From the NCBI GenBank assembly GCA_018897105.1, contig JAHILF010000066.1:15021-79020 (forward strand): a stretch of DNA of 64,000 nucleotides, in the 5' to 3' direction. The translations under genes were made by a program, and so were the position numbers. Positions within the stretch are counted from its first letter, which is position 1; the number at the start of each line of letters is the position of its first letter. The stretch comes from Pseudomonadota bacterium (GTDB taxonomy: Bacteria > Desulfobacterota > Desulfobulbia > Desulfobulbales > SURF-16). Shown one piece after another: positions 4,716-54,987 of this stretch. The notes beneath the pieces were generated by a model that saw only the letters and a program-made list of their open reading frames with translations, ran no database searches and was not told the DNA's origin.

Positions 4716-5483
4716 TCACTTATTACTTCTTACTCGAAGTTCACCTATGTGATTTTCACTTGGATACATAAAGATTGGTTCCAATATGTTGTCCAATGGT
4801 GTATCAGGCCCAAGTATATGCATTCCAGCAACAGCCCCTTTTTCTTTTGCTTGTGGGGGCGCGGGGAAAATTTCTACTCCGAATCCATCTGCACTATAAA
4901 ATATGCCGTTCAATTGAACGGCATCACCTAAAATTCGTACTTGAAGGATTACTTCACCCTTTTCGCTTATGATTTCAAGAGTATTATCATTATAATTCCG
5001 ATCGAATGTCTTGGGGGGTGGAGCAACTTTCCATTCGTTATTTACTAAATTGGCTATCAATGAACCAGAACGATCTCTTAATATCATTGAAACCAATAAG
5101 TTATTTGTCTTTTCATTAATATCAACAGATAAGTCACGAAAAAATCTTAGATATGGCACTTTTGGATTGTCAGCAACTGTAAATATATCTGTAATCTGGT
5201 TCTTAAATAGGAATCCCATCCCTCTTTTTTCTAGTGTCCAGCCAAGCTCAAGACGTTTTATTTTTGGGTTAAGGTAGAATCCTCTATCCTGTGTTTTAAG
5301 TGTTCCAGAATATGTTTTCGAAGCTTTCTCTTCATGAACTTTTCGATTCAGAAGAAACTGAATAACACCAATTATCAATAGAACAAATATGGCAATAACT
5401 TTAAATTTCTTTGTTGTTGTATCAGTTTTTAGCCACCCAAGTATGGCAATAAAAACTGTTAAGATTATTAATACAATTTGCAT
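4716..5483 (-). CDS. Hypothetical membrane-anchored protein (two N-terminal TM helices), visibly AT-rich orphan gene
   Basis: A 255-aa ORF with no family motif I recognise. Its base composition is clearly lower in GC than the flanking mqn genes. Confidence 0.55.
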   Translation of the reverse strand: MQIVLIILTVFIAILGWLKTDTTTKKFKVIAIFVLLIIGVIQFLLNRKVHEEKASKTYSGTLKTQDRGFYLNPKIKRLELGWTLEKRGMGFLFKNQITDIFTVADNPKVPYLRFFRDLSVDINEKTNNLLVSMILRDRSGSLIANLVNNEWKVAPPPKTFDRNYNDNTLEIISEKGEVILQVRILGDAVQLNGIFYSADGFGVEIFPAPPQAKEKGAVAGMHILGPDTPLDNILEPIFMYPSENHIGELRVRSNK

Positions 5484-5528
5484 AATCTAAGATTAACGAA
5501 TTTAACAAATTAAAATAAAGGAACGCAG

Positions 5529-5588
5529 TTAGTCGGATTTGTCTAGTTTGCCAAACCAGTTTAGACCAGATTGACCAGTCAAACCAGT
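5529..5588. repeat. 9-bp periodic repeat block in both orientations (TTAGTCGGA TTTGTCTAG .. AAACCAGTT TAGACCAGA TTGACCAGT CAAACCAGT)
   Basis: Read directly. The second half is the reverse orientation of the CTGGTC/TTAGTC units seen at 4598-4633. The block ends on the mqnA stop codon. Confidence 0.7.
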
Positions 5589-6403
5589 CATCTACACACC
5601 TTTACCGGCAGGGCTGCTGCCTGCGCCTCGCCGCGTTTGATCAGGAAATCAAAAAAAAGCGTCAGCGCCTGCATCTTCTGCGGGGTGAGATCATATTCAA
5701 TACCGAGGAGATACTTATAACATGAATCAACGGTCATGGGAATTCTCGGCGCCACCTGGGTGCAGACCGCCTGCAGGTTTTCCTTGCCTTCGCGGATGCA
5801 GGAGAGCAGCTCAGCCCGGATTTCGCTGACGCAGCCGGGCTGCCGGGCAAGAAAATCTTCACGCACCGCCCAGACGGCAAAGACAAAGGGCAGCCCGGTG
5901 TGCTGCTGCCAGGTCTCACCCAGATCAAGACAGAAGGGATAATCCCCGTTGGTTTTCAACCGCAGGGCCTCATCGCCGATGGCCAGCACCCCGCTCACCT
6001 CGTCACCTTCCAGATTGTTGCCGGTGTGATAAATGGGCCGGACCCGGTAAAACTCCTCCAGGATGATCTTCACCAGGGCCACCGAGGTCTGCGACTGGGT
6101 GCTGAGCCGCACCTTTCTGCCCGCCAGTTCTTCCGGGGCGAGCCGGGAAAAGAGAAAGACGCTGCCCACCGGCCCGGAGGAGCTGATGGAAATATCCTCC
6201 AGAATGCGATACAGATGGGGATGGGCAGCATATTCATGGGAGGAGACAAAACCCAGGTCAAGCTCATTATTGCAGAGCATCCTGTTCAGGGTGGTGGGTG
6301 CGCCTTCGGTGATCAGCCAGTCAGGCCGGGTGACCTTTTGCTGCCAGATCACATAGAGCGGCGCCGTGTTGATAAAATTGACCATCCCGATACGTGCTTT
6401 CAT
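5588..6403 (-). CDS. mqnA: Chorismate dehydratase MqnA (futalosine pathway)
   Basis: MKARIGMVNFINTAPLY.., periplasmic-binding-protein-like fold. A GAGGAGG SD lies upstream of the ATG at 6401-6403. The ORF-track start at 6451 is an extension. Confidence 0.8.
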   Translation of the reverse strand: MKARIGMVNFINTAPLYVIWQQKVTRPDWLITEGAPTTLNRMLCNNELDLGFVSSHEYAAHPHLYRILEDISISSSGPVGSVFLFSRLAPEELAGRKVRLSTQSQTSVALVKIILEEFYRVRPIYHTGNNLEGDEVSGVLAIGDEALRLKTNGDYPFCLDLGETWQQHTGLPFVFAVWAVREDFLARQPGCVSEIRAELLSCIREGKENLQAVCTQVAPRIPMTVDSCYKYLLGIEYDLTPQKMQALTLFFDFLIKRGEAQAAALPVKVCR

Positions 6404-6404
6404 C

Positions 6405-7592
6405 CTACCTGGCCTCCTCGACCCAGCGGACCTGCAGGGTTTTCCCCGCACTTGTCAGAAAATCATCAGCATTGCCTGCTGTTACTCCCTGGGCATCAAC
6501 GGCGATGATATCCGCCCTCATGGCCGGGGCAAGCTGTCCGGTATCATGCACGGCAAGACATTGCGCACCTCCCAAGGTCGCCATGGTAAGCACCGTGGCC
6601 GGGGCAAGCTGGGGATGGTCCTCGCGCAGCAGGCGCATCTCCTCCCAAATGGAAAATTGCGGATTGCTGGCCAGACTGTCCGTGCCCAGGCCAAGCATTA
6701 AGCCTGCCCGTACCATTTTTTCCACCGGCGCCTTGCCCACCCCCAGACACCTGTTGCTGCCCGGGCACAGACACACCTTGGCGCCTCTTGCGGCAAGCAG
6801 GTCGATTTCATCGTCCGTGACATGGACACAATGTACGCAAAGGGTCTTAGCATCGATCACGTGCAACCGGTCAAGATAGGTGACAGCCCCGCAGCCTGGC
6901 GGGACAAAGGAATCATCCCAGAAGCCCCGTTCCTCGATAAAGGAACGCAGCGGCCCGGTACCGTCCAGCAGAAAATCGATTTCCGCCCGGGATTCCGCCA
7001 CATGGATGGAAAATATCTGGTTTCTGCTGTTTGCCCGCTGTTTTGCCGCAACCAGCAGACGGGCATGGTTGGAATAGGGGGCGTGGCTGGTGCAGTCACC
7101 CTTACTCTCCTGCATCCTGGCCAGGGCACTGACCGCAGAGTGCTGGGCAAAGCCGAGCATCTCCAGAAAAAAATGGACCTGCACCGGGTGCCCCTCGCCG
7201 ATTTTTACGCTATCCGGCAGATTGCCGATATCGGCAACCCGGGCCACCCCCTGCTCATACAACACATCCAGGGCAATACGCGCAGCAGTGGCGCCGTCAT
7301 CAGCCGAATGCTGCCGGGCCGCCAGCAGTTCGCCGATCCAGCCGGTCATTCCGCCCTCTCGGGGCTGCCGTTGGCCGAGCACGGCCAGGTGGGAAAGCTC
7401 CAAATGGGCATGACAGTTGATCAGGGCAGGAAGCAGGATAGCCCCCTCATGGTCCTTCACCAGTCCCCTGCCCCGGAGCTGGGCATAGGAACCGACCTCG
7501 ACAATGGCGCCGCCTTCGGTGACCACGGCCCCATCGCTGATGGGCGGGGCGCTGATCGGCAGTACCACCGGCGCTCTGTGCACACGCAGCAT
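6405..7592 (-). CDS. Amidohydrolase-family deaminase (aminodeoxyfutalosine deaminase-like / chlorohydrolase)
   Basis: LINCHAHLELSHL, HVAES and GTDSLASN motifs. The gene sits between mqnC and mqnA. Confidence 0.75.
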   Translation of the reverse strand: MLRVHRAPVVLPISAPPISDGAVVTEGGAIVEVGSYAQLRGRGLVKDHEGAILLPALINCHAHLELSHLAVLGQRQPREGGMTGWIGELLAARQHSADDGATAARIALDVLYEQGVARVADIGNLPDSVKIGEGHPVQVHFFLEMLGFAQHSAVSALARMQESKGDCTSHAPYSNHARLLVAAKQRANSRNQIFSIHVAESRAEIDFLLDGTGPLRSFIEERGFWDDSFVPPGCGAVTYLDRLHVIDAKTLCVHCVHVTDDEIDLLAARGAKVCLCPGSNRCLGVGKAPVEKMVRAGLMLGLGTDSLASNPQFSIWEEMRLLREDHPQLAPATVLTMATLGGAQCLAVHDTGQLAPAMRADIIAVDAQGVTAGNADDFLTSAGKTLQVRWVEEAR

Positions 7593-40695: not shown

Positions 40696-42840
40696 GTGAG
40701 CCCTGCCAAGAAAAAATCCTTTGAATCCCTTGAAGACGCCTATCTGAAGGCTCTTGACCTTGACGAGAAACCGGAGGAAGAGAAAGACAGGCCCTCATCT
40801 ACCCAGGATCAGCAGGATCTCACTGCCTCCCTGCAGAGGGTAAAGGCATGGCAGGGCAAGGAACTTCTCCTCTCTCCGGACAATATGTCCGTTACTCTGG
40901 TGCTGACGGGTGGAGAACCGATTACCGCGACGCAGATCAAGCTTGCCCTGGAACAGTCCGGCATCATTTACGGCATCAGTCCCGGCGCGCTGCAGAAAGT
41001 GGAAGAGATCTCCCGCTCACCGGAAAAGACGGGAAAATTTCTCCTTGCCGCCGGAACTCACCCGCAAATAAGCCGCAGGATCACATTCCCCTTTTTAACA
41101 AACAGACCTGATGCAGGGCACACCATGCACCAGGCAGCGGCAGAACTCGATTGCGCCGCGCTGCAAAACCTGTTTTCCGCTCCCGACCTGATCGCTGTCC
41201 ATGCCGCCGCACTGCTGGTCAAGGCAGTGAATGCCGGAGAGGTGCTGCTGAAAATACAGGAAAACCCCGATGCCCAACCCGGCCGGGATATTTACGGCCA
41301 TGAAATCGAATGTATTGCCGAACCCTTGCCTGGAGGAGGCGACAATGTAGTATTTAATGTAACAGGCTGGAGTTACGAGGCAACGGCATATGGCTACCTC
41401 CTCGTTGCCGAAAACACCCTGTCCGTTCTCCCTCCTCTGTGGATAACAGCCGACCGAAACGCCGCCTATTATCTTTGCCTTCCCCAGCTTGCTCCCTGCA
41501 GATACCCTACCACAATCGATATAAGCGAGATGCTGCTGAAGGCGGGCATCCATGAAAAATGTATTGATCCTGCCGCCATTGAAAACATGGTGGCACAGAT
41601 GGCCGCAGGCCTCACCCTTCCCCGCACGATCAAACTGGCCGAAACAGTGCAACCCCTACACGGGCATGCCGCCACCTTTTCTCTTTCCTTTGATGCGGCA
41701 AAGAAAGCCGGGGCGCTGCGCCATGACGGTTCACTTGATCTGCGGGAGCGAAACGCCGTGGTCAGCGTTTCCGCGGATACCCTTATTGCCGAAAAGAATC
41801 TGGCGACCATAGGTGTTGCCGGATGCACGCTTTTCGGCAAACCCATCAAAGCTACCCCGGGTGTTGACAAGAAAATCAGCATCGGCCAAGGGGTCAGGGT
41901 TGAAGAGAAAAAAGACGTCATCCGCTATTTTGCCGAAAAAAACGGCAACGTCAAATTCAGCAAAAATACCCTCGCCGTGCAGGACATATTCGAAATTTCC
42001 GGCGATATTGACTATTCTACTGGAAATATAAACGTAAAAACCGACCTGTTGATCAAAGGATCGGTTCTCAGGGGCTTTACCGTCAAATCCGAGGGTGACA
42101 TCGCCATCATGGGCGCCGTGGAGAACGGGGCAACCGTCATTGCCATGGGAAACCTGACAGTGGACAAGGGGATCATCGGCGAAAACAGCAAGGTTGTCAG
42201 CCGCGGCAATCTCCGCACAGGCTATATCCAGGACGCGGAGGTGATCGTCAAGGGGGATGTGATCATCGGCAGCTATCTCTTCAACTGCATGCTCATCGCC
42301 AGCGGCAGCATCACCGTCCTCAGGGAGCAGGGGCAAAAAAGAAGCGGCAGGGTGGTGGGCGGCATTATCTGTTCAGCGAAAGGTATCAGGTTGAGCACCA
42401 TCGGCAGCCCCGGCAAACCGGGGACAGTTGTCGCCCTGCGCACTGATCCGGAAATCGTGGCCGGCTTGAAAAAACTGGAAGAACAGCTCTTGTCCTGCAC
42501 CAGCAATATCACCAAAATCTCACGCAGCCTTCCCTTTGATTCGTTCGATGCCGGTCAGATAAAAGCCGCTCTGGCCCGCATCCCCGCCGCCAAGAGGGAT
42601 GGCCTCGTTCTGCTGTTAACCAACCTGAACAAACTGATCAAACACAGGAAAACCCTGTCGGAAACAATGGAGCAGTTACGCAGCCGCATTGATCTTTCTT
42701 TACACAATGCCCGCATTGAGGTGATCCAGGAAATTTTTCAGGGAAGTGAGATTCACATCGGCGGCCAGCACTTCATTATACCCCAGGATATGGGGCCCTC
42801 TCTCTTTAAGTTGCATGACGGGAAAATCATCCGCGCCTGA
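40696..42840 (+). CDS. DUF342/FapA-family protein (beta-helix C-terminal region)
   Basis: 714 aa with a GTG start. Repetitive G-x-I/V-x-V beta-helix-like stretch (GDIDYSTGNINVKTDLLIKGSVLRGFTVKSEGDIAIMGAVENG..). The assignment is from overall pattern, not an HMM. Confidence 0.65.
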   Translation: MSPAKKKSFESLEDAYLKALDLDEKPEEEKDRPSSTQDQQDLTASLQRVKAWQGKELLLSPDNMSVTLVLTGGEPITATQIKLALEQSGIIYGISPGALQKVEEISRSPEKTGKFLLAAGTHPQISRRITFPFLTNRPDAGHTMHQAAAELDCAALQNLFSAPDLIAVHAAALLVKAVNAGEVLLKIQENPDAQPGRDIYGHEIECIAEPLPGGGDNVVFNVTGWSYEATAYGYLLVAENTLSVLPPLWITADRNAAYYLCLPQLAPCRYPTTIDISEMLLKAGIHEKCIDPAAIENMVAQMAAGLTLPRTIKLAETVQPLHGHAATFSLSFDAAKKAGALRHDGSLDLRERNAVVSVSADTLIAEKNLATIGVAGCTLFGKPIKATPGVDKKISIGQGVRVEEKKDVIRYFAEKNGNVKFSKNTLAVQDIFEISGDIDYSTGNINVKTDLLIKGSVLRGFTVKSEGDIAIMGAVENGATVIAMGNLTVDKGIIGENSKVVSRGNLRTGYIQDAEVIVKGDVIIGSYLFNCMLIASGSITVLREQGQKRSGRVVGGIICSAKGIRLSTIGSPGKPGTVVALRTDPEIVAGLKKLEEQLLSCTSNITKISRSLPFDSFDAGQIKAALARIPAAKRDGLVLLLTNLNKLIKHRKTLSETMEQLRSRIDLSLHNARIEVIQEIFQGSEIHIGGQHFIIPQDMGPSLFKLHDGKIIRA

Positions 42841-42956
42841 ATGTTTTACGCCACCAACCCTCACCAGATGGACAAACCGTTGCCACCATTCTTTGTCGAC
42901 GTAGATTGTTGATGCACTCCTTGAAGATATGCGACTCAAACAGGGATAAAAATGGT

Positions 42957-42984
42957 TTGACATCACCATTTAAAAAATTATAGC
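42957..42984 (+). promoter_or_regulatory. Candidate sigma70-type promoter TTGACA-N16-TATAGC upstream of the hydrogenase genes
   Basis: Read directly. It is about 155 nt upstream of the large-subunit ATG in a 298-nt AT-rich gap. Confidence 0.3.
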
Positions 42985-43138
42985 TTATCCTAATGAGTCT
43001 GTCAGAGTTATACGGTTGTTTTTCTTAAGAGAACAACCTCGTAGAAGTCGACCGATAATTTTTTTTAACAATTATGTCACTCGTTGTTTGCAGGTTTCTT
43101 ACCCCAGACTGTTTAAACCATCCAGAACAGGTTGAATC

Positions 43139-44650
43139 ATGAAAATCGAACTTGGCCCCCTGTCCCGCATTGAAGGTCACCTCAATGTCAAGACGACCGT
43201 CACCGACAATGTCGTTGTGGATGCCCAGTGCGTCGGAGAGATGTTTAGGGGATTTGAGGTGATACTGAGAGGCCGTGACCCCCTCGATGCCCAGCAGATC
43301 ACCCAAAGAATCTGCGGAGTGTGCCCCTATGCCCATGCCATTGCCTCTTCCTATGCCCAGGAAAACGCCTACGGCATCACTCCGCCCGCCAATGGCCGCA
43401 TCCTGCACAACCTGATTCAGGGGGCCAACCATCTTTACGACTACCTCCTGCATTTCTATCAGCTTTCAGCCCTCGACTTTGTCGATATTACCGCCATTGC
43501 CAACTACAAAGGATCGGACGCTGAACTCGTCCAGGTGAAAGATTGGGTCAAGGCGGAATTGGCCTCGAAGAAGGCCTTTCCCGGCGCCCCGTTTCTCCCC
43601 CGTCTTGAAGGGCAATACATAAAGGACGATGACCTCAATATAGGAGCGCTCAAGCACTATATCGAGGCCATGGAGATACAGAAGAAGGCTATTCGGGCAT
43701 CAGCGATCTTTGGTGGCAAATTTCCCCACGCAACCGGGATATTCCCCGGCGGTTGCAGCCAGAAGCCGACTATAGACCATATCTCTGCCTATCAGGCCTT
43801 GATCGAGGAAGTCAGAGATTTTATCCATCAGAAATATATCCCCGACCTCCTGGCCGTCGCCCAGGCATTCCCTGAATACTGGCACATCGGCCAGAGTCGC
43901 GGCGGCTTCATGTCCTTTGGCCTGCTCCCCTTCGCTCCGGCGAGCGGCAGTCGGCGGCTGTTCGCCTCGGGCTTGCTGCTGGACGGCAAAGTCCAGCCTG
44001 TCGATTTTGGTCTTATCACCGAAGATGTCAGATACGCCCGCTACTCATCAGCCAGCGGCCTCAACGTCAAGGAAGGGGAGCTGATCCCTGACCCTGAAAA
44101 AAATGGGGCCTACACCTGGATCAAGGCGCCGCGCTATAACGGGCAGATGGTCGAAGTCGGGCCAGCGGCCAGGATTCTGGTCGACTATCGGCAAGGGAAC
44201 AACCAACAGGTGACCACACTGGTCAATCACTTCGCGGGCCTGGCCGGCATCAGTGCCAATGAGTTGAACTCCGTCCTGGGCCGTCATCTCTGTCGAGCGA
44301 TCTGCGCGGTTGTTATTGCCGACTTTCTGCTGGAGGAAACCGAAAGGATCAACCCGGGCGCCCCGGCCTCACTCGAACTTGAAATCCCCGCCACCGGCGA
44401 AGGCTTCGGCGCTACCGAGGCCTCCCGTGGGGCACTTTTGCACTATATCCGTCTGCAGAATCATAAGATCGAGAAATATGAGTGCGTGGTGCCGACGACA
44501 TGGAACTGCTCCCCCCGCGACGATCAGGGGAATCCCGGAGCAATGGAATCGGCTCTGATCGGCACCAAGGTGGCGAACCAGGCAGTACAGATTGAATCGG
44601 TACGGATAGTCCACTCTTTTGATCCATGCCTGGCCTGTGCCGTCCATTAA
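43139..44650 (+). CDS. [NiFe] hydrogenase large subunit, sensor-like (no C-terminal maturation extension)
   Basis: RIEGH; N-terminal ligand motif RICGVCPYAH; C-terminal DPCLACAVH immediately followed by TAA. 503 aa. Confidence 0.9.
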   Translation: MKIELGPLSRIEGHLNVKTTVTDNVVVDAQCVGEMFRGFEVILRGRDPLDAQQITQRICGVCPYAHAIASSYAQENAYGITPPANGRILHNLIQGANHLYDYLLHFYQLSALDFVDITAIANYKGSDAELVQVKDWVKAELASKKAFPGAPFLPRLEGQYIKDDDLNIGALKHYIEAMEIQKKAIRASAIFGGKFPHATGIFPGGCSQKPTIDHISAYQALIEEVRDFIHQKYIPDLLAVAQAFPEYWHIGQSRGGFMSFGLLPFAPASGSRRLFASGLLLDGKVQPVDFGLITEDVRYARYSSASGLNVKEGELIPDPEKNGAYTWIKAPRYNGQMVEVGPAARILVDYRQGNNQQVTTLVNHFAGLAGISANELNSVLGRHLCRAICAVVIADFLLEETERINPGAPASLELEIPATGEGFGATEASRGALLHYIRLQNHKIEKYECVVPTTWNCSPRDDQGNPGAMESALIGTKVANQAVQIESVRIVHSFDPCLACAVH

Positions 44651-44665
44651 CAAGAGGCTTCTTCG

Positions 44666-45574
44666 ATGCTGAACAGACGTGAATTCATGACCATGGCTGC
44701 CGCACTCTGCACCGCCTTTGGTGTGAGCAACCTCCCCGAACCCGTAGCCGCTGCACTCAAACAGATCGACCCTCGGACCATTCCCAAACTGCTCTACCTC
44801 CAGGGCCAGTCCTGCTCGGGATGTTCCATCTCTTTACTCCAGGCCAAGGAACCATCCCCCCTCACCTTGATCACCAGATATTCCCAGCTTGCCTTTCATA
44901 CCGATCTTTCGGCGACCAGCGGCTCACAGGCCATGAATCTTATCGAGCGTTATCTCGCCGGTGAGGCTGGGCAATACATCCTGGTCCTGGAAGGGGCCAT
45001 CCCGGAGAAAATGCCATCGGCCTGCATGATTGGCGATAAGCCCCTGGCCAGCCTACTCGAATCGGGAGGCAGGACCATGACAGCCGCCATTGCCATTGGC
45101 GCCTGCGCCTGCGATGGCGGAATCCCCGGGGCGGAAGGGAATTTAACCGGCGCTATCGGCTTGCCGGAATTTTTTGCCCAGCGGAATATCGAAAAACCAC
45201 TGATCCAGATCCGGGGCTGTTCCGTTCATCCTGACTGGGTCTGGCAGACAGTAGTCCACCTGGTCAAAGTAGGGATGCCCGAGCTTACTGAAACAGATTC
45301 ACCCAAGCTCTTTTTTAACCGCAGCATCCATGATGCATGCCCCAGGTACCACGACTTCCAGGAAGAAATTTTTGCGGAGAAACTGGGAGATAGCGGTTGT
45401 CTCTTTAAGCTTGGCTGCCTCGGTCCACAGACTAAGGCAGATTGTTCCAGCCGTTGGTGGAATGGCGGGCAAACCTGGTGTATCAATGTCAATGCTCCCT
45501 GCATCGGCTGCGCATCCCCCCTCTTTGCCCGACAAAAAAACATGCCGTTCTATCGCATGAAGAAAAAAGCGTGA
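44666..45574 (+). CDS. [NiFe] hydrogenase small subunit with a twin-arginine leader and ligands for three FeS clusters
   Basis: [24 protein letters not shown]; [10 protein letters not shown]; GACACDGG; GCSVHP; [10 protein letters not shown]; [17 protein letters not shown]; [12 protein letters not shown]. Confidence 0.9.
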
Positions 45575-45617
45575 CCAGATTCCCAAAAATGCACCCTGCC
45601 CAGGAGGATATACGGCC

Positions 45618-47279
45618 ATGAACAAATCTTTGCTTGCCAGCCGGTCGATAACCGTAAAACTGGTTGTTTCAGTTGTGGTGACGCTGTTCGCTGCGATACT
45701 TGTCGGCACGCTGCTGCTGAACAACTATGTCCGCAGTGAGATGACCAGCGCCTACATGATTTCCGTCAACAACCTGGCCCAGTCTCTCCAGCAGGGAGTC
45801 AAGGATTCGCTGGAACGAGGGCAGATGGGGAGTTTCCAAAAGCTTCTCCTGCGCCAGAAAGACATTCGAGGGGTAGTGGATGTCTCTTTGTATGACCGGC
45901 AGTTACATGGCAACCTCTCCTCCTCCGAGAAATCCATCAAAGGGCAAACCTTGCCGGATGAGTTAAAAAAGGAGCTACTGTCCATCAAAGAACCGCTGGT
46001 CAAAATCAGCCCCAAGTCGATTCAGATATACACTCCGCAAATGGTGACGCAGGACTGTATCCGTTGCCATCCCTTCTGGCAGGAGAATGAACAGGGCGGA
46101 ATGATTGCGCTCACCTTCGACTTGACCCCCTTGCATCAAGCGCTGGGGAAACAGAAAGTTATGCTGAGCGTGGGCAGTCTTGCCCTGATTATGATTGTCA
46201 GTGCCATAATCTTTCTCCTGGCGCGTTCACTCACCAAGCCGGTGGTGCAGATGACCAAGGCCATGGTGCGTCTGGCCGACGGCGATTTGCGCGTCGAAAT
46301 CCCGGCCCAGGATAGAAAGGATGAAATCGGCGAGATGGCCGCCGCTGTCCAGGTCTTTAAAAACAACGCACTCGACCGACAACGTCTCACGGCAGAACAA
46401 GAGGCAGGAAAACAGCGGGCCGCCCTGGAAAAAACAGCCCTCATGAACAAACTTGCCGCTGATTTTGAAGCCAATATCGGCGGGCTCATCAGCGGGGTAA
46501 CGGCAGCGGTCGCCCAGCTGGAGGCAAACGCAAAGAAAATGGCCGACAATGCTTCCCAGACCAAGACAAAATCCGATTCTGTGGCCATGGCTGCGGCGAA
46601 TACATCCGCCAATGTCATGACCGTTGCCTCGGCCACGGAAGAACTATCAAACTCGGTGAGTGAAATCAGCCACCAGGTCGCTAAGTCGGCTGGGGTCGCC
46701 CGCAATGCGGTGCAAAAGGCCAGTCACACCAACCAGATGGTCGGCAGCCTGGCAAATTCCTCAAAAAAAATCGGCGAAGTCGTCAAACTGATTACTGATA
46801 TTGCCGGACAGACCAAACTGCTGGCTTTGAACGCCACCATCGAGGCGGCCCGGGCCGGTGAGGTCGGCAAAGGCTTTGAGGTGGTGGCCAACGAGGTCAA
46901 AGAATTGGCTAAACAGACCACCGCCGCCACCAAAGAGATCAGCGATCAGATCGCCGACATTCAAGGGGCGACCAACGAGGCAGTCGAGGCAATTCGCGAC
47001 ATTGGCGCCACCATCGGCGAGATCGATGAGATTTCGACAAGCATCGCCGCTTCGGTTGAGGAGCAGGGAGTTGTCACCCTGGACATTGCCAAGAATACCC
47101 AACAGGCGGCAACCGGGTCCAAGGCGGTATCCGGCGACATCTCCATCGTCGCTGCTGCAGCCGACGAAACCGGGGTGACTGCCGCTTACGTTTTGGACGC
47201 CGCCTCCGCTCTCAGCCAGAAGGCCAATGCCCTGCGCCATGATGTCACCCTTTTCCTTGAGACCATCAGGTCGTCCTAA
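45618..47279 (+). CDS. Methyl-accepting chemotaxis protein with a periplasmic CxxCH (haem c) sensor domain, HAMP and MA domains
   Basis: TM1 at aa 13-34. The periplasmic loop contains DCIRCH (C147/C150/H151). TM2 at aa 181-202. HAMP ([12 protein letters not shown]). Signalling hairpin [34 protein letters not shown]. Confidence 0.9.
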
Positions 47280-47291
47280 CCGGAGCAGTGT

Positions 47292-50200
47292 ATGGCATTC
47301 ATTGACGACGACGAAACATTACAGTCCTTCAAGGACGAATCCCACGAGCATCTGGACGGAATTGAAAACGACCTCCTTGCCATTGAGGAGGCTGGCGCCG
47401 ATATCGATCTTGAATTGGTCAACAAGGTCTTCCGCGCCATGCACTCCATCAAGGGTGGCGCCGGTTTCCTGGGTCTCAATGCGGTAAAGACCCTGGCTCA
47501 TGCCGCTGAAAACCTGTTGAATAAAATTCGTAATAAGGATCTCGTGCCGACCACCCCGGTCATCAGCGGTCTCCTGGATGCGGCCGACCTCGTCAATCGC
47601 TTGCTGAACCAGCCGAAAGGGGCCGTTGAACTTGACATTTCCGGCCCCCTGGCTGCTCTGAACAGCATCCTCTCGCCCGAATCTGATCAAGCTGCCCCAC
47701 CACCTGGTGTTTCCCATGCAAACAAGCCCGGCACGCCCGGTCAGCCAGCTTCCTGGCAGGGCCTGCTTACAGAGCACAGTGCCGAGATCGCCGACAATCG
47801 TCTGGGCGGATTCGGAATCTTTGTCCTCGAGTTCGAACGGAGCAGCGATGGCGAACAACAGGGGCTTTCCCCAACCATCCAAACAACTCTCGAGAGTATC
47901 GGTCAGGTTCTCGGCAGCCAAACCGACGACAGTTCGGCAGCCTCCCCTCAACCTACCTATGTCCTCTACGCGACCATGATGGAAAGGGATATGCTCGTAT
48001 CCTTTGCCGGTCTACCACCGGAACGGGTCCATGAAATCCAGGAACAGGCGGAACCTGCCCCCGCCTCGCCTGTTCCGACGGTTGAACCGAGCCCCATCCC
48101 GGCACCGGTGGCAGAAGAATCGCCGTCACCATCGCCGTCGAAAAACGTGGCTGCCGACAGTGCCCCGCAAACCAAAGCTGGAACGGACAGCAGCCTTCGG
48201 GTCAACATCAAAATCCTTGATAACCTGATGACCCTGGCGGGAGAGCTGGTGCTGACCCGCAATCAGTTTCTGCAAATCGTCCACTCCTCCCACCAGCAAA
48301 TCTTTGACGCCGTCTCCCAACGCTTTGACCTGGTCACCTCCGAACTCCAGGAAGCCATCATGTGCACCCGTATGCAACCGGTTGGCAACATTTTCAATAA
48401 ATTCAAACGCGTGGTTCGGGATTTGGCCCATAAACTTGGCAAAGAGATCGATCTGGTCTTGGAAGGCGGTGAGGTCGAAATGGATAAGACCATCATCGAG
48501 GCCTTGACCGACCCCCTGACCCATCTGGTACGCAACTCCGTTGACCACGGCATCGAAACACCGGACAAGCGAACAGCAGCCGGCAAAACACCCTGCGGCA
48601 CACTTCAGATCAAGGCCTTTCATGAAGGAGGCCAGGTCATCATCGAAATAGTCGATGACGGTGGCGGTATTGATACTGCCCGAATCAAAGAAAAGGTCTT
48701 GAGCATGGGCACCCATGACAAGTCCCAGATCGAAGCAATGCAGGAACATGAGCTTTTGCGGCTCATCTTCCTGCCCGGTCTCTCCACCGCCAAAGAGGTG
48801 ACCGATGTCTCTGGACGAGGCGTGGGCATGGATGTGGTGCATGCCAACCTCTCCAAGGTGGGCGGCGTCTTCGACATCGCCAGCAAACTGGGCAAAGGCA
48901 CCACCATCACCATCAAACTGCCCTTAACCCTGGCCATTATCCCCAGTCTGATCGTCAGTGTCGGCACCGAACGCTATGCCATCCCGCAGGTTAACATGGT
49001 CGAGTTGGTACGGGTGCCGGCATCCAAGGTCAAACAGCGAATCGAGAGGATCGACGAGGCGCTGGTGATCAGACAGCGCGGCAGGCTCTTGCCACTCATC
49101 AGTCTGGCCGAGGCGCTGGGTATCGAAAAACGCTACTATCAAGTCCCTAAAACGAAGCAGGTCAAGGTCTGCCAGCGGCAATTGATCGAAGACCGCCGGA
49201 GCTGCACCGCGCCCTCGGGTGAAGACAGTGAGAACTTGACCTCTGCCGGCTTCGGAGTCACTACAGGCGTCTCTGAAGTTAACCAGGAAAATCGTGAGAG
49301 TCCAGACCGTCGCACAAGCCCGCAAAGCGCCGTCAATATCGTTGTTGTCTCGGTGGGTAAATTTCATTACGGCCTGATTGTTGACAAGCTGCTTGATTCG
49401 GAAGAAATCGTGGTTAAGCCCCTGGGCTCACATCTGCGTCAATCTCAGCTCTATGCCGGCGCTACCATTCAGGGCGACGGCAAGGTGGCACTGATCCTTG
49501 ATGTGGTGGGAATCAGCAAGTTCATGAACCTCTCGTCGGGCTCCGTCCGGGTGCGTGATAGAGGGCCACAGGAAACCGAACGAATCAATCCGGATGCTCA
49601 GACCTTGCTTCTGGTCCGAAACTCGCCCAAAGAACAGCTGGCCATCCCCTTAAACCTGGTCTCCCGGATCGAAGAAATACAGCGCGATCAAGTTGAACTT
49701 ACCGGCGGCAGAAGCAATATGCAGTATCGAGGCTCAACCCTGCCCCTGTTTTCTATTAATGAGGTTGCAAAGGTTGCCCCTCTCCAGGAGGACAGCAGCA
49801 ACCTCTATGTGGTGGTCTTTCCTTTTGGTGAACGAGAAGCCGGGATCATGGTGTCGGAGATCATCGATATCGTCACCGTGATCGGCGGCCTTGATGATAC
49901 GACTCACAAACAACCAGGTATCATGGGTTCGGTCATTATCATGAAAAAAATCACCATGCTAGTCGATCTCTTTGGCATCGTTGCCGCAATGATGCCGGAG
50001 TGGATCCGGCACACCAGCCTTGGCACCAAAAGCGGCCAGGGTCAACATATCCTGGTGGTGGAAGATTCGCCATTTTTTAACCGCCAGATCTGCGGGTTCG
50101 TCTCGGATGCCGGGTACAAAGTCTTCAGCGCCACCGATGGTGTTGAAGGTCTTGCCCTTCTCGAGCGTGAAAAAATTGACCTCATCCTCACCGATATCGA

Positions 50201-50402
50201 GATGCCTAACATGGACGGACTGGAATTCACGGCTCGGGTACGTACCGATGCCCGCTGGTCGGGAATGCCAATCATCGCTGTCACCTCATTAAACAGTGAG
50301 GCTGCAGAAAAACGCGGTCTGAAGGCAGGGGTTAACGAATACATGATCAAACTGGATCGAGAAAAAGTTATTCATACGATTAACAGCTATCTCAAACATT
50401 AA
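47292..50402 (+). CDS. cheA: CheA-type histidine kinase hybrid: Hpt, Pro-rich linker, dimerisation/HATPase, two CheW-like domains, C-terminal REC
   Basis: FRAMHSIKGGAGFLGL (Hpt His51); DPLTHLVRNSVDHGIE; GRGVGMDVV; two CheW-like blocks; ILVVEDSPFF..LILTDIEMPNMDG. Confidence 0.92.
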   Translation: MAFIDDDETLQSFKDESHEHLDGIENDLLAIEEAGADIDLELVNKVFRAMHSIKGGAGFLGLNAVKTLAHAAENLLNKIRNKDLVPTTPVISGLLDAADLVNRLLNQPKGAVELDISGPLAALNSILSPESDQAAPPPGVSHANKPGTPGQPASWQGLLTEHSAEIADNRLGGFGIFVLEFERSSDGEQQGLSPTIQTTLESIGQVLGSQTDDSSAASPQPTYVLYATMMERDMLVSFAGLPPERVHEIQEQAEPAPASPVPTVEPSPIPAPVAEESPSPSPSKNVAADSAPQTKAGTDSSLRVNIKILDNLMTLAGELVLTRNQFLQIVHSSHQQIFDAVSQRFDLVTSELQEAIMCTRMQPVGNIFNKFKRVVRDLAHKLGKEIDLVLEGGEVEMDKTIIEALTDPLTHLVRNSVDHGIETPDKRTAAGKTPCGTLQIKAFHEGGQVIIEIVDDGGGIDTARIKEKVLSMGTHDKSQIEAMQEHELLRLIFLPGLSTAKEVTDVSGRGVGMDVVHANLSKVGGVFDIASKLGKGTTITIKLPLTLAIIPSLIVSVGTERYAIPQVNMVELVRVPASKVKQRIERIDEALVIRQRGRLLPLISLAEALGIEKRYYQVPKTKQVKVCQRQLIEDRRSCTAPSGEDSENLTSAGFGVTTGVSEVNQENRESPDRRTSPQSAVNIVVVSVGKFHYGLIVDKLLDSEEIVVKPLGSHLRQSQLYAGATIQGDGKVALILDVVGISKFMNLSSGSVRVRDRGPQETERINPDAQTLLLVRNSPKEQLAIPLNLVSRIEEIQRDQVELTGGRSNMQYRGSTLPLFSINEVAKVAPLQEDSSNLYVVVFPFGEREAGIMVSEIIDIVTVIGGLDDTTHKQPGIMGSVIIMKKITMLVDLFGIVAAMMPEWIRHTSLGTKSGQGQHILVVEDSPFFNRQICGFVSDAGYKVFSATDGVEGLALLEREKIDLILTDIEMPNMDGLEFTARVRTDARWSGMPIIAVTSLNSEAAEKRGLKAGVNEYMIKLDREKVIHTINSYLKH

Positions 50403-50421
50403 TTCCGCCCGGACACTCCCT

Positions 50422-50877
50422 ATGCAGCCATCACCTACCGCCAATGCCACCAAGCGCAAACTGGCCCTGTTTGAATCCGGGCATCTTCTTTGCGGCCTCG
50501 ATATCATCCATGTGCAGGAAATTAATAAAAATATCGCTGTGACTGCTGTCCACCGCGTCCCCGACTATGTGCGGGGGGTGATCAACCTGCGGGGAGAGAT
50601 TGTGACAGTGGTTGATCTGCGCACAAAATTCGGTTTTGCCCCCCTAGCTCAGGAGGCCGAAGAACAGATTGTCATAGTCCGACTCGGCGATGAGAATATC
50701 GGACTCCTGGTGGACTCGGTCAGCGATGTGGTGATCGCTGATGAAAAAGATATTGAACCCACACCCCCAAATCTGGCAGGGGTGCCAGGGCACTTCTTCA
50801 AAGGTATCTATAAACTTGAACAAAGCCTGGTTGCTATCTTAAATATAGAAAAGCTTCTGGCCAGAGAATTCGAATAG
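50422..50877 (+). CDS. cheW: CheW coupling protein
   Basis: [42 protein letters not shown]. Confidence 0.9.
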
Positions 50878-50909
50878 CCGTCACGCTTCTTATACAGGGG
50901 GAAATACTG

Positions 50910-52184
50910 ATGTCGCTCAGCACAAAACTCTTTACGGCCCTTGCGGTCACAGCATTGCTGGCGGCAAGCCTGGTTGCCGCCAATCTGTATGGTGCCAGCG
51001 CTTATCTTCAATGGGCGGTCACCCTGACCATGGAGATCCTTCTGGCATGGGCCTTTGTCCTGGCGCTCTCCCTGACCAATGACCTGAGGCGCATAGGGGT
51101 TGTTTGCCGAAAGACAGTTTCGGGCAGTCCAGCCTCAATTGCCGGAACTGCGAATGATAATGATTTGGCCGCTATCGATGCAGCGCTGACGAAAAATGCA
51201 GCCGACTATCAAGAACTTGCCACCACACTCCGGCAAGGAGTCGAAGAACTGATCGCACAGGGCTCAGGACTGTCCTCCCTGGCTGCACAGTCAATGGCAA
51301 AGCTTCATTCAGCCTCAGCAATTTCGTCTTCGGCGGAAGCAGCCATCAAGACCCTGGCCCTTCATGCCGCTACTGTAGCCAGTCGCTTTGAGAGATTGAA
51401 TGCCGGCATGGGCACGGCTACCAACACCGCCAGCGAGTCGGCAGCGCAAGTCAGCATGATTATTGGCGCCACGGAAAAAATGAGCGCCACCATTGCGAAC
51501 ATTGCAATAAGTGCGGAAAAGGCCAGGAGTGTGGCAGGTGCTGCGGTCTCCAATGTCAATGCGGCCTCAAACCGGGTGGACGAACTGGGTGCCGCCGCCT
51601 TGGAAATCAACAAGGTAACGGATGTTATCGTTGAAATCGCTGAACAAACGAAACTGCTGGCTTTAAACGCCACCATTGAGGCCGCTCGAGCCGGTGAAGC
51701 GGGCAAAGGATTCGCCGTCGTCGCCAACGAGGTCAAGGAACTTGCACTGCAAACCAATAACGCTATCGCCGAAATCTGCAACAAAGTCGAGGCAATGCAG
51801 AACTCAACCGACAACACGATCGCTGAAATCGGGGCCATCAATCAGTCCATCAAGGCCGTGAACGAAATTGTAGTCACCATCGCCGGCGCCGTGGATGAGC
51901 AATCGATCCCCACCAAAGACGTGGTCAGGCAGTTAAATCAATGGGTGAAGGGCATCAATATCATCAAGGAAGCGGTAAACGCCGCTGTAGCAGAAGTAAA
52001 AGAAACATCCGTCAACATCAACAAAGTAGCCGCGATCTCTCAGGAACTGGCTGAAGAATTCGCCGCTGTCGCCCCGAGGGACGAAGACCTCTCCCCACTT
52101 CTCGCCTCCATAAAGCAACAGTCCGATGACCTGCAGTCTACCGGCGAAAAATTACTCGCCAAAATAGACGGTGAACAGCTTTGA
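50910..52184 (+). CDS. Methyl-accepting chemotaxis protein without a periplasmic sensor or HAMP (two closely spaced TM segments plus MA domain)
   Basis: [34 protein letters not shown]. The N-terminal hairpin of TM helices has only a short loop. Confidence 0.88.
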
Positions 52185-52197
52185 TGGGACGTTAAAG

Positions 52198-53037
52198 CTA
52201 TTCCCTTCCCTTTTGGAAATAGATCGTATTGCAACTCTCGTTTCTGATAAAACGGTCGCTGATGCCAAAAATTGACTCCGTAGAACCGATGATCAAAACG
52301 CCTTCCGAGCGGAGACAGGTGGCCATCGTTTGAAATAACCGACGCCGATTTTTCTGATTGAAATAGATTGCCACGTTGCGGCAGAGAATAATATCATACA
52401 CACCAGGTCCCTCGGGGGCGGCGAGGAGATTCGTCTTATTAAATACGGTCATGGCCCGCAAATCGGCCCTGACTTTCAATAATTCTCCCTGAGACTCGAA
52501 ATATTTCCGACAAAGACCAAGGGGCACCCCTCGTTCCACCTCATAGCGGGTGTAGAGCCCTTTTTGGGCCTTCTTGATGGCAACATCTGAGATATCAGTA
52601 CCGGTTATGGTGATATGCCACCTCTTCATTTCGTCGCCAAGAAGTTCCGCGATGATCATGGCTAGAGAGTAAACCTCCTGCCCGGTTGAGCAGGCAGCGC
52701 TCCAGATCTGCAGCCTGGGCGGGGTTGGGTCGCTTCCGTTTTGTCGTTTGCCAAAAAATTCGGGCAAAATCTTTGCCTGTAGCAACTCAAAGGGCCGCTG
52801 GTCGCGAAAAAACGAAGTTTCGTGGGTAGAAATGGCATCCACAACCCGAGCCTCCCATTCCTCTGAGCGGTAGCCGGCATAAAAAAACTCAGCGAAGCTC
52901 TTGGCTCCATACTCATCCAGCAACGGCCCCAGGCGGCTTTCCAGGAGATAAGCCTTGGTGCTGTTTAAGACAATTCCACTGCGGGCGTGAATGAACTCCG
53001 CAAACAGCTTTACCTCTTCGGGCGTGATGGAAATCAT
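52198..53037 (-). CDS. cheR: Chemotaxis protein methyltransferase CheR
   Basis: THETSFFRD, IWSAACSTGQEVYSLAM, IILCRNVAIYF. ATGA overlap with cheB. Confidence 0.92.
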   Translation of the reverse strand: MISITPEEVKLFAEFIHARSGIVLNSTKAYLLESRLGPLLDEYGAKSFAEFFYAGYRSEEWEARVVDAISTHETSFFRDQRPFELLQAKILPEFFGKRQNGSDPTPPRLQIWSAACSTGQEVYSLAMIIAELLGDEMKRWHITITGTDISDVAIKKAQKGLYTRYEVERGVPLGLCRKYFESQGELLKVRADLRAMTVFNKTNLLAAPEGPGVYDIILCRNVAIYFNQKNRRRLFQTMATCLRSEGVLIIGSTESIFGISDRFIRNESCNTIYFQKGRE

Positions 53038-54119
53038 CTCACCCTTCTCATAATTTCAGGGCCTATGTCGGCCAGGGGTATCACCGCATCGACAACCCCG
53101 GCCTTCACGGCTTCCATGGGCATACCGTAAACGATACAGCTCGCCTGATCCTGGGCAATGACCTGGGCGCCCTGCCGTTTCATCAGGCGTAAGCCGTGCG
53201 TGCCATCACAGCCCATGCCGGTCATAATGACACCAAGGGACTGTCCCTTGCACACTGAAGCAACGGAGCGGAACAAATAATCAGCAGACGGTTGACAATA
53301 ATTTTCCGGAGGGTCGTCGGTAACCTCCAGCACATAATGCGACTGACCCTGTCCGTGGGCAACCCGCATCTGCCTGCTTCCCGGCGCAATATAGGCTGTC
53401 GCAGCTTGCAAAACCTGGCCGGCCTGCCCCTCCACCACGCGAATGGAGCACTTGCTGTCCAGGGATTCAGCCAGGGCACCGGTAAAAAACTTTGGCATAT
53501 GCTGCACGATGACAATCGGCACCGGGAAATCAGCAGGCAGGCGAGGCAGGAGATCGGCTAAGGCAACTGGGCCCCCCGTTGAAATGCCGATGGCCACAAT
53601 CTTAATCCCTGCGGTGCGATGTTCTGTAGATTGTCTAATGATACCTGTCGCTGGAGGAGCTCCAACAGGCTTGGAGTCCATACCGCCAATAGTCTGACGC
53701 AGAATCTTTTGCGCCATAACGGCATTGAGGATGGGACGAAACTTACCGGCCAGCATCTGGAAATTATGTTGCGGATCATCGCCGTCAGGCTTGGTTATAA
53801 AATCATAGGCCCCCAACTGCAAAGCCTCCAAAGTGATCGCGGCACCCTGCCGGGTATGGGTGCTTACCATCAACACCAATGCCTTGGACTTGATTTCCTG
53901 CAGTTTTTTCAAGGTGGTCAGGCCATCCATGACCGGCATTTCCACGTCCAGCGTGATCAGGTCCGGGTTCAGCTGAGCGACTTTAGCGAGCGCGATTTCC
54001 CCCTGGGACGCCGTGCCGACCACTTCCACACCCGGAATGGCAGTCAGAATCTCGTAGATAATGGTTCGATACAGTATGGTGTCATCGACCACAAGTACCC
54101 GCAATAGTTCATGAGACAT
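53034..54119 (-). CDS. cheB: Chemotaxis response regulator protein-glutamate methylesterase CheB
   Basis: REC (RVLVVDDTILYR..TLDVEMPVMDG) plus methylesterase (GISTGGPVAL, VQHMP, MTGMGCDG). The start is taken as the ATG at 54117-54119 (MSHELLRVLVVDD). The ATG at 54137 is also possible, and the track start at 54155 is a TTG. Confidence 0.9.
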   Translation of the reverse strand: MSHELLRVLVVDDTILYRTIIYEILTAIPGVEVVGTASQGEIALAKVAQLNPDLITLDVEMPVMDGLTTLKKLQEIKSKALVLMVSTHTRQGAAITLEALQLGAYDFITKPDGDDPQHNFQMLAGKFRPILNAVMAQKILRQTIGGMDSKPVGAPPATGIIRQSTEHRTAGIKIVAIGISTGGPVALADLLPRLPADFPVPIVIVQHMPKFFTGALAESLDSKCSIRVVEGQAGQVLQAATAYIAPGSRQMRVAHGQGQSHYVLEVTDDPPENYCQPSADYLFRSVASVCKGQSLGVIMTGMGCDGTHGLRLMKRQGAQVIAQDQASCIVYGMPMEAVKAGVVDAVIPLADIGPEIMRRVR

Positions 54120-54606
54120 AATTTCCTGGTTTGGCATGGGCTCCAGTTGCAGCAAAAAAATAATTCCACAATCGGGAACGATTCAGGGGGTAATGTTCCG
54201 GTTTCACTTTCCAGGAGTAAAGGACGCTTTGAGTCTCTCTCCCGAACAGTCAGCACGATGTGAATTTTGAGAAAAGCAAGCTTGACTTTTCCTTTGTTCA
54301 CCCCCTATGCTTAAAAAAAGCAAACTGTTCGTGGCTCTCTGTATCTTTATAGATTAATGGCAAAATTAATTTTCCCAGCAAGAAATCTGTCTGCGTTGCT
54401 AAGAACATACAAGAGAAAAAGTGCTACAGGATGCTAACGTTACAGTTGAGAATTCACCGTTTCCTATAGGAGAACAACTGAACATCTATCGAACGCTTAC
54501 AATTTTGACCGGCTTTGCCCCACTTGATGCCCCAGGCGAGCGATTGCAAGAAACTCGAAGCCATCGGGGTTCCCCCCCCCTCAAACTTCAAAAAAAGATA
54601 AAAAAT

Positions 54607-54987
54607 ATGAGATTTTTAGTAGTCGACGACTTCGACACCATGATAAAAATTACCAAGAATGTCCTAGATGATTTAGGATATAACGATGTTATCACAGCCC
54701 GCAATGGAGAACAAGCATATCAGATTCTCACTAAGGAAAAAATTGATTTCATCATTTCAGACTGGAACATGCCGGTCATGACCGGCATCGAACTCCTGAA
54801 GAAAGTAAGGGGCAACCCTAAATTAGCCCATATCCCCTTTTTGATGGTGACAGCCGAATCTGAGAAGGATCATATTGTCGAGGCAATTCAGGCGAAGGTG
54901 GACCAATACATCCTCAAACCATTTAATCAAGAGATGTTAGCCCAAAAAATCGGTTTTATCCTGCATAATAAAAAAGAGAAAGCCTGA
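54607..54987 (+). CDS. cheY: Single-domain CheY-like response regulator
   Basis: MRFLVVDDFDTMIKI..IISDWNMPVMTG..YILKPF. The 62 upstream codons of the track ORF are unsupported. Confidence 0.88.
   Translation: MRFLVVDDFDTMIKITKNVLDDLGYNDVITARNGEQAYQILTKEKIDFIISDWNMPVMTGIELLKKVRGNPKLAHIPFLMVTAESEKDHIVEAIQAKVDQYILKPFNQEMLAQKIGFILHNKKEKA

Follow-up and report, generated by a model that had tools for sequence, protein, structure and literature searches.

Which signal is read by a chemoreceptor that carries a haem-c attachment motif in its periplasmic loop and is encoded directly behind the two subunits of a [NiFe] hydrogenase? The question is raised by a stretch of 64,000 nucleotides (nt) of a Pseudomonadota bacterium (GTDB: Desulfobacterota, Desulfobulbales, SURF-16; assembly GCA_018897105.1, contig JAHILF010000066.1, positions 15,021 to 79,020 of the forward strand), hereafter the window, in which a gene for a methyl-accepting chemotaxis protein (MCP), here called the haem-MCP, is the third in a tight run on the + strand, namely HydL, HydS, haem-MCP, a CheA with CheW-like and receiver domains, CheW and a second MCP. 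The haem-MCP is probably a receptor for steering by H2; that it forms, with the exported hydrogenase, a system for extracytoplasmic H2 sensing through electron transfer to the receptor haem has in our judgement a chance slightly above even. The features of the receptor gene are the following (aa, amino acids; TM, transmembrane segment).

45618..47279, + strand: haem-MCP gene (553 aa), from the list of open reading frames (ORFs) and Pfam domains
45654..45719, + strand: TM1 (about aa 13-34), by hydropathy
45720..46157, + strand: periplasmic sensor domain (aa 35-180), from the AlphaFold2 model, Foldseek and hhalign
45807..45827, + strand: S64-L-E-R-G-Q-M70 motif at the kink between two N-terminal helices, with Met70 at 45825-45827, by conservation
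46056..46070, + strand: CxxCH haem-c attachment motif C147-I-R-C150-H151 (TGT ATC CGT TGC CAT, in frame with 45618..47279)
46158..46223, + strand: TM2 (about aa 181-202), by hydropathy
46215..46364, + strand: HAMP domain (aa 200-249; PF00672, E 9.3e-13)
46677..47150, + strand: MCP signalling domain (aa 354-511; PF00015, E 4.5e-29)

The protein has the architecture of an MCP, with two transmembrane segments followed by a HAMP and an MCP signalling domain. Its sequence contains exactly two hydrophobic segments (centres aa 14-29 and 188-201; Kyte-Doolittle, 19-aa window), the first with the basic residues K3, R9 and K14 on its N-terminal side and the second with R203 and K207 on its C-terminal side, and because of these segments and their flanks the sensor loop of about 145 residues is taken to be extracytoplasmic. 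This is the compartment to which the attachment of c-type haem is confined. C147 and C150 are the sole cysteines of the 553 residues. Given the composition of the long ORFs of the window (fC 0.0138, fH 0.0266), a CxxCH is expected by chance about 0.0007 times per loop and 0.003 times per protein, so that the motif, which is moreover retained almost universally among the homologues described below, is not in the loop by chance. For cytochrome c maturation the genome has System II genes, with CcsA adjoining ResB; CcmE was not found in the genome by the search for cytochrome c maturation genes.

When aa 1-210 were used in a word-seeded search, 87 homologues with identities of 37-91% were retrieved; they come from Desulfurivibrio, Desulfobulbaceae, Desulfotignum, Desulfobacter and metagenome-assembled genomes, and all of them carry C[ILVM]RCH at the aligned place. 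Since such a search may favour shared 5-mers, it was repeated with a hidden Markov model (HMM) only, in which a profile of 21 trimmed sensor domains was run against 1.84 billion cluster representatives (50% identity) and retrieved 538 clusters at E<=1e-3, 289 of them at E<=1e-10. Three of the 145 new representatives are fragments that stop before the motif, and CxxCH is present in 141 of the other 142. The sole exception, P0166 (769 aa), has the first Cys replaced (E-W-I-R-C-H); as it was retrieved by the HMM, members without the first Cys remain detectable. Its motif would allow a single thioether bond at most, or possibly reflects a sequencing error. The original prediction, made from the letters of the window, had read C147-I-R-C150-H151 at 46056-46070 in the periplasmic loop between TM1 and TM2, and would have been abandoned if the two cysteines were not conserved in orthologues; the codons are read directly and in frame, hydropathy and basic flanks agree on the placement, and the cysteines are kept by nearly all relatives in both searches.

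Conservation in the loop is not confined to the CxxCH. The S64-L-E-R-G-Q-M70 motif is 100% conserved in the 88 aligned sequences, and Met70 is retained in every cluster representative that covers the position. Further invariant positions are F73, G85, L91, S102, P140-Q141, R149, W154 and G161, and D146, G160 and D168 are nearly so (92-99%), while the remaining Met, His and Cys residues of the loop are not (H97 7%, H173 39%, M42 76%). The family falls into two subfamilies, SLERGQMKNF, which is that of the window, and the larger SLERGEMEKF. Its representatives include hybrid histidine kinases (kinase-type examples are P0174, P0180 and P0223), and the source labels extend to Omnitrophota, Spirochaetes and magnetotactic Desulfobacterota. 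Cultured carriers are Desulfobacter curvatus DSM 3379 and D. vibrioformis DSM 8776.

To which family does this domain belong? Residues 34-181 have no match in Pfam (even at E<=10), in NCBIfam or in a sequence search of the PDB. A profile search of the PDB with the sensor domain gave no meaningful match either. Matches to RNF31 and astellifadiene synthase in these searches were rejected as due to chance, falling on a Cys-rich stretch. An AlphaFold2 model of aa 33-183, based on an 88-row alignment, has a predicted local distance difference test score (pLDDT) of 86.4 and a predicted template modelling score (pTM) of 0.80, and adopts a single-Cache/PDC fold in the order long helix, helix, two strands, helix, two strands, a short helix with the CxxCH, last strand and C-terminal helix. 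The short helix occupies model residues 113-118, between strands 102-110 and 127-136. It has been reported in a 2026 preprint that the DUF3365/Tll0287 family (PF11845, including GSU0582 and GSU0935) constitutes 'sCache_heme', which has a single-Cache fold with an inserted short helix bearing a CxxCH that is kept in 99% of members (PMC12889525). In the model of the window's domain the CxxCH helix is likewise found between late Cache strands, the beta3-beta4 numbering of that paper not being matched one-to-one. When the PDB was searched with Foldseek, the top match was WalK (4ywz; TM-score 0.68-0.70, E 2e-6), followed by the sensor domains of DctB, KinD and CitA, and the Geobacter haem-c sensors GSU0935 (3b42, E 3e-4) and GSU0582 (3b47, E 6.6e-4) were matched as well. 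Furthermore, hhalign aligned the domain with 21 true PF11845 domains from genomes of the same phylum at 95.5% probability (E 1.3e-8, 57 columns), with CxxCH on CxxCH, a 'Y-x-P' strand before it and a 'GG-hydrophobic' strand after it.

PF11845 itself weakly matches 8 of 21 relatives of the window's domain, below threshold (best E 0.011), and PF21563 (Mcp40H-20_sensor; gathering threshold 27 bits) weakly matches 13 of the 21 (best E 3.5e-5); the homologues P0059 and P0060 carry a precomputed PF21563 match. A PF11845 search of the same genome found four genuine members elsewhere and missed the haem-MCP. On the genome's own contig C9 (21205-21726, 27603-27911, 34895-36145), two true PF11845 genes lie 7-14 kb from another [NiFe] large-subunit gene, which has an in-frame TGA and possibly encodes a selenocysteine [NiFeSe] enzyme.

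Some of these results speak against a place among the haem-c Cache sensors. With 3b42 and 3b47 Foldseek reaches low TM-scores of 0.38-0.44, for which the helix swapping of the dimers in those crystals is a plausible cause; the hhalign match is limited to the C-terminal 57 columns and leaves the N-terminal helices unaligned; and the window's domain is below detection for both PF11845 and PF21563 (E<=10). As fold and hhalign agree while Pfam detects nothing, we nevertheless regard the domain as very probably a divergent, unannotated branch of the known haem-c sensors. Independent acquisition of a CxxCH helix at another place of the Cache fold was rejected on the grounds that hhalign aligns the motif together with its flanking strands and that the Met/Cys/His spacing matches GSU0935. 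The original prediction of a PAS-like haem-c sensor of the Tll0287/DUF3365 or Geobacter haem-MCP kind is thus borne out by the AlphaFold2 fold, Foldseek and hhalign, with the family now assigned to Cache and not to PAS; as for the HMM check proposed with it, the direct Pfam scan of the sensor domain gave nothing, and it was the profile comparison with PF11845 that recovered the relationship.

The Geobacter proteins also suggest how the haem might be held. In GSU0935 the haem is attached via Cys140 and Cys143 and ligated by His144 and Met60, and it changes from high spin when oxidised to low spin when reduced, with the Met bound (PMC8396549). By analogy, Met70, Cys147, Cys150 and His151 of the window's domain would correspond to Met60, Cys140, Cys143 and His144, the Met-to-His spacing being 81 residues compared with 84 in GSU0935. 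H151 is presumed to be the proximal axial ligand, and Met70 is, from its conservation, the candidate for the distal one; we infer haem attachment and His/Met ligation from these correspondences. The lack of any Pfam haem family above threshold would also suit a CxxCH that is instead a metal-binding or thiol-disulphide redox motif; we consider this most improbable in view of a strict C-x-x-C-H with invariant His, an invariant distant Met, the extracytoplasmic location, the maturation genes of the genome and a homology to haem-c Cache domains in which the motifs align.

The likeness to GSU0582 and GSU0935 (3B47, 3B42) therefore comprises a periplasmic MCP domain between two transmembrane helices, two long N-terminal helices followed by a beta sheet, a CxxCH shortly before the last strand and, putatively, a distal Met from the N-terminal helices (Met70/His151 in the window's domain for Met60/His144). 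On the other hand, the identity in structural alignment is 15-16%, with no sequence-level match even by profile, the Geobacter genes have not been reported to be linked to a hydrogenase, and the SLERGQM, PQ, DCxRCHxxW and GG motifs are specific to the family of the window. With sCache_heme/PF11845 as a whole the domain shares the single-Cache fold, the short helix with a strict CxxCH and the fusion to MCP, kinase and other outputs, whereas its post-CxxCH segment is much shorter than in many members, its N-terminal half is unaligned, and those members have been proposed as nitric oxide (NO) sensors with no hydrogenase context reported (PMC12889525).

What could such a receptor sense? The genes directly upstream encode a hydrogenase.

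43139..44650, + strand: [NiFe] hydrogenase large subunit HydL (503 aa), ending DPCLACAVH-stop (PF00374, E 4e-149)
44666..45574, + strand: [NiFe] hydrogenase small subunit HydS (302 aa; PF01058, PF14720)
about 44666-44755, + strand: twin-arginine leader of HydS with RREF, by alignment with 2wpn_A

The linkage was followed in 100 related loci, 80 from a scan of one genome per GTDB species and 20 from an HMM search of the phylum (401 genomes, 25 with the domain, 20 places cut out), in some of which the contig breaks off at the small subunit. HydL-HydS lie directly upstream on the same strand in 79 of the loci and with one gene between in another 15, so that the pair stands just upstream on the same strand in 94/100, over sensor identities of 25-94%. 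Even for three distant homologues (62, 46 and 40% identity), the genes directly upstream encode a large subunit of 503 aa and a small one of 302-317 aa; the outer neighbours are unrelated, and che genes are absent in two of the three. As CheA follows in only about one third of the loci, the conserved unit is the three-gene HydL-HydS-haem-MCP. In addition, the identities of sensor and HydL rise and fall together (Spearman 0.81, n=86). Where a gene separates hydS from the haem-MCP, it usually encodes an MCP of 436 aa in which no sensor domain is recognised (L006, 6645-7955), and in the Desulfotignum/Desulfobacula loci with this inserted MCP (L028-L041, L066) a full che set follows.

That the adjacency is a local accident was rejected on this count and on the contrast with the nearest other hydrogenase clade. 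This next-nearest HydL clade of the phylum (43-47% identity; L150-L155, L157, L159-L161) has small-then-large gene order, no twin-arginine translocation (Tat) leader, a 16-aa C-terminal extension, no sensor, and metabolic genes downstream. Its hydrogenase genes are followed by two conserved ones, of about 220 and 290 aa, and in some loci by hyp-like maturation genes. The lack of a Tat leader and the other downstream genes mark it as a cytoplasmic enzyme with a different set of partners.

The enzyme of the window is of another type. HydL lacks a C-terminal extension and ends DPC-x-x-C-x-x-H-stop, with the Ni-site His, in 90 of the 90 complete copies of the related loci, and a twin-arginine (RR) motif stands at every complete HydS N-terminus. 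A large subunit without C-terminal extension is a trait of sensing hydrogenases. The closest PDB matches of HydL (5jsu_B, E 8e-111) and HydS (2wpn_A, E 4e-57) are periplasmic [NiFeSe] hydrogenases, those of Desulfovibrio vulgaris and Desulfomicrobium baculatum being matched by both subunits. HydS aligns from residue 2 with the D. vulgaris precursor 2wpn_A, including the RR leader and the conserved Cys/His positions, and because of this alignment of the chain as a whole a full iron-sulphur relay is likely. The natural electron acceptor of periplasmic [NiFeSe] hydrogenases is a c-type cytochrome.

With the group 1a periplasmic [NiFeSe]/[NiFe] enzymes (D. vulgaris HysAB, Dm. baculatum), a relation that is based on best PDB matches, the window's enzyme shares its closest solved sequences in both subunits, the Tat precursor, and the form of a soluble periplasmic heterodimer, which in that group donates electrons to a c-type haem protein. 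It differs in a Cys for the selenocysteine, the missing C-terminal extension, an inverted gene order and a presumed acceptor that is a one-haem receptor domain and not a tetrahaem cytochrome. The resemblance to group 1a uptake enzymes, together with the absence of a cytochrome c3 or b partner among the genes of the window, would suit an energy-conserving uptake hydrogenase for which the haem domain is mainly membrane anchor and electron acceptor, signalling being incidental. We hold this to be very unlikely, since electrons on the single haem of an MCP could reach neither quinone nor the cytoplasm, the genome holds other [NiFe] hydrogenase genes, the large subunit lacks the extension as established for sensing hydrogenases, and the partner is always a signal transducer, MCP or kinase.

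The co-divergence of HydL and sensor is what is seen for interacting proteins, and the regulatory hydrogenase-kinase complex HoxBC-HoxJ offers a precedent for signalling by protein-protein contact, in which a conformational change on H2 turnover would be passed to the receptor with no electron reaching the haem, the latter being structural or sensing something else. This too is unlikely, though less so than the uptake function: the alignment of HydS with the [NiFeSe] Cys/His positions makes a full relay likely, the nearest enzymes deliver electrons to haem c proteins, and the invariant CxxCH and Met of the partner are most simply those of an electron acceptor.

The window's system can be compared with the group 2b regulatory [NiFe] hydrogenases (HoxBC-HoxJ, HupUV-HupT). 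Both have a hydrogenase as the input of a transducer and a large subunit without extension. Those enzymes, however, are cytoplasmic, without Tat leader and small-then-large in gene order, whereas the window's enzyme is exported, with a conserved RREF leader, and large-then-small; their partner is a soluble PAS histidine kinase with transcription as its output, while the window's enzyme is paired with a membrane haem-MCP and would have a chemotaxis output. The module is best read, by analogy, as what would be a periplasmic counterpart of HoxBC-HoxJ/HupUV-HupT, in which a group-1a-like enzyme is combined with a receptor domain that resembles a cytochrome. Two genomes (L148, about 4796-7129 on the - strand, and L149) contain another hydrogenase of this kind, again large-then-small, with a Tat leader and without extension. 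It is followed by a protein of 778-782 aa that combines Hpt and HATPase_c with two CxxCH motifs (at aa 170 and 209); this protein looks like a dihaem sensor kinase and would, if so, be a periplasmic analogue of HoxBC-HoxJ. There is, in our estimate, an even chance that a distinct clade of Tat-exported, extension-less [NiFe] hydrogenases serves solely as the input to haem-c Cache transducers, mostly MCPs and also kinases, by passing H2 electrons directly to the receptor haem.

How would the signal travel? We propose that the single-Cache domain would bind one c-type haem covalently via C147 and C150, with H151 as proximal and Met70 as redox-dependent distal ligand, and would be dedicated to the [NiFe] hydrogenase encoded upstream, a Tat-exported enzyme of sensor type. 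The hydrogenase would oxidise periplasmic H2, and the electrons would pass through its iron-sulphur relay to the receptor haem, whose reduction would favour Met70 ligation (low spin), as in the Geobacter sensors. Met70 ligation would in turn move the N-terminal helices that continue into TM1 and TM2, and this movement could be transmitted through TM2 and the HAMP domain to the MCP tip and from there to the adjacent CheA, CheW, CheB, CheR and CheY, the net output being taxis by extracytoplasmic H2 sensing.

The same haem could also serve a general periplasmic sensor of redox state, O2 or NO, a role proposed for GSU0582/GSU0935, DcrA and the sCache_heme receptors, with the hydrogenase merely keeping it reduced (reset or poising). 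What is sensed would then be not H2 but the oxidant or a gas ligand. Geobacter sensors bind NO and carbon monoxide and have been read as redox-potential sensors (PMC8396549), sCache_heme receptors show NO-sensor properties (PMC12889525), and a one-haem sensor necessarily integrates reductant and oxidant. As a reset device, though, a dedicated two-subunit metalloenzyme with sensor-type traits that adjoins the sensor in 94/100 loci would be costly, and no such linkage is reported for the true PF11845 sensors of the same genome, whose neighbourhoods were not examined. We take this to be the main rival, possible if doubtful, and in practice the haem would integrate both inputs.

Several further points weigh against H2 sensing by electron transfer. 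We infer haem binding and electron transfer from hydrogenase to sensor, and likewise the taxis behaviour as output, from the features described. A reversible signal from a single haem needs a re-oxidant in addition to the hydrogenase. HydL has CGVC and not the narrowed-channel CGIC, which we take to be the form of cytoplasmic regulatory hydrogenases. Five of the 100 loci have no hydrogenase within the stretch examined and one has it divergent, and because of those five the sensor can exist without the enzyme. The related genomes are not independent samples, and since the 80-locus scan was fished with the motifs SLERGQMxN and DC[IV]RCH[PQH]xW, that set is unusable as an independent test of motif conservation. 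Finally, the characterised sCache_heme receptors have been proposed as NO sensors (PMC12889525).

Would such a system be new? Sensors of the haem-c Cache kind as such are not new, the Geobacter structures dating from 2008 and the sCache_heme preprint from 2026, and it is the present branch that lies outside the Pfam model. To our knowledge, no bacterial H2-taxis receptor has been characterised, and the only proven H2 sensors known to us are cytoplasmic hydrogenase-kinase pairs that control transcription. In the sulphate reducer Desulfovibrio vulgaris, the MCP DcrA carries a c-type haem in the periplasm and is said to sense redox state or oxygen, and we know of no hydrogenase linkage for it. 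DcrA has been cited alongside the Geobacter haem sensors (PMC8396549). HydDB lists only a putative [FeFe] 'chemotactic' group and the cytoplasmic [NiFe] sensors. The former, group C2, resembles the present system in its predicted H2-sensing link to MCPs and differs in that it belongs to another enzyme superfamily and is cytoplasmic, domain-fused, without haem and uncharacterised. A full-text literature search found no paper describing a periplasmic [NiFe] hydrogenase coupled to a haem chemoreceptor; a neighbourhood survey lists MCPs, without comment, among genes near [NiFe] hydrogenases (PMC12727194), and hydrogenases are not mentioned in the sCache_heme papers (PMC12889525 among them).

If the module does sense H2, it would be without precedent as an extracytoplasmic H2 receptor, bacterial hydrogen taxis would gain its first molecular basis, and it would be seen how anaerobes in sediments and in syntrophic consortia find sources of H2. 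The haem-Cache family would then reach beyond the proposed NO sensing, and there would be a new functional class of [NiFe] hydrogenases, probably filed as respiratory group 1 by current classifications. For annotation, a sensor family of at least 538 clusters at 50% identity is currently without a sensor-domain label. Direct tests of the idea are within reach, given the cultured carriers and a sensor domain that is small and soluble.

The remaining genes around the run, assigned by Pfam, are as follows.

47292..50402, + strand: CheA with CheW-like domains and a C-terminal receiver, 12 nt 3' of the haem-MCP
50422..50877, + strand: CheW
50910..52184, + strand: second MCP (424 aa) with an N-terminal hydrophobic hairpin and without sensor domain
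52198..53037, - strand: CheR
53034..54155, - strand: CheB
54421..54987, + strand: CheY-like receiver

A FapA/DUF342 gene lies upstream of the hydrogenase-MCP run. Promoters and terminators predicted over 42700-52400 were as numerous as expected from shuffled sequence, and no intergenic terminator was among them. The N-terminal 200 aa of the second MCP are kept after CheW in close relatives only (55-87% identity, six loci), and this protein may share a signalling array with the haem-MCP. The CheA (47292-50402) has three CheW-like stretches by Pfam besides its C-terminal receiver, and the same architecture (1062 aa) is found after the haem-MCP in the Desulfotignum locus L006.

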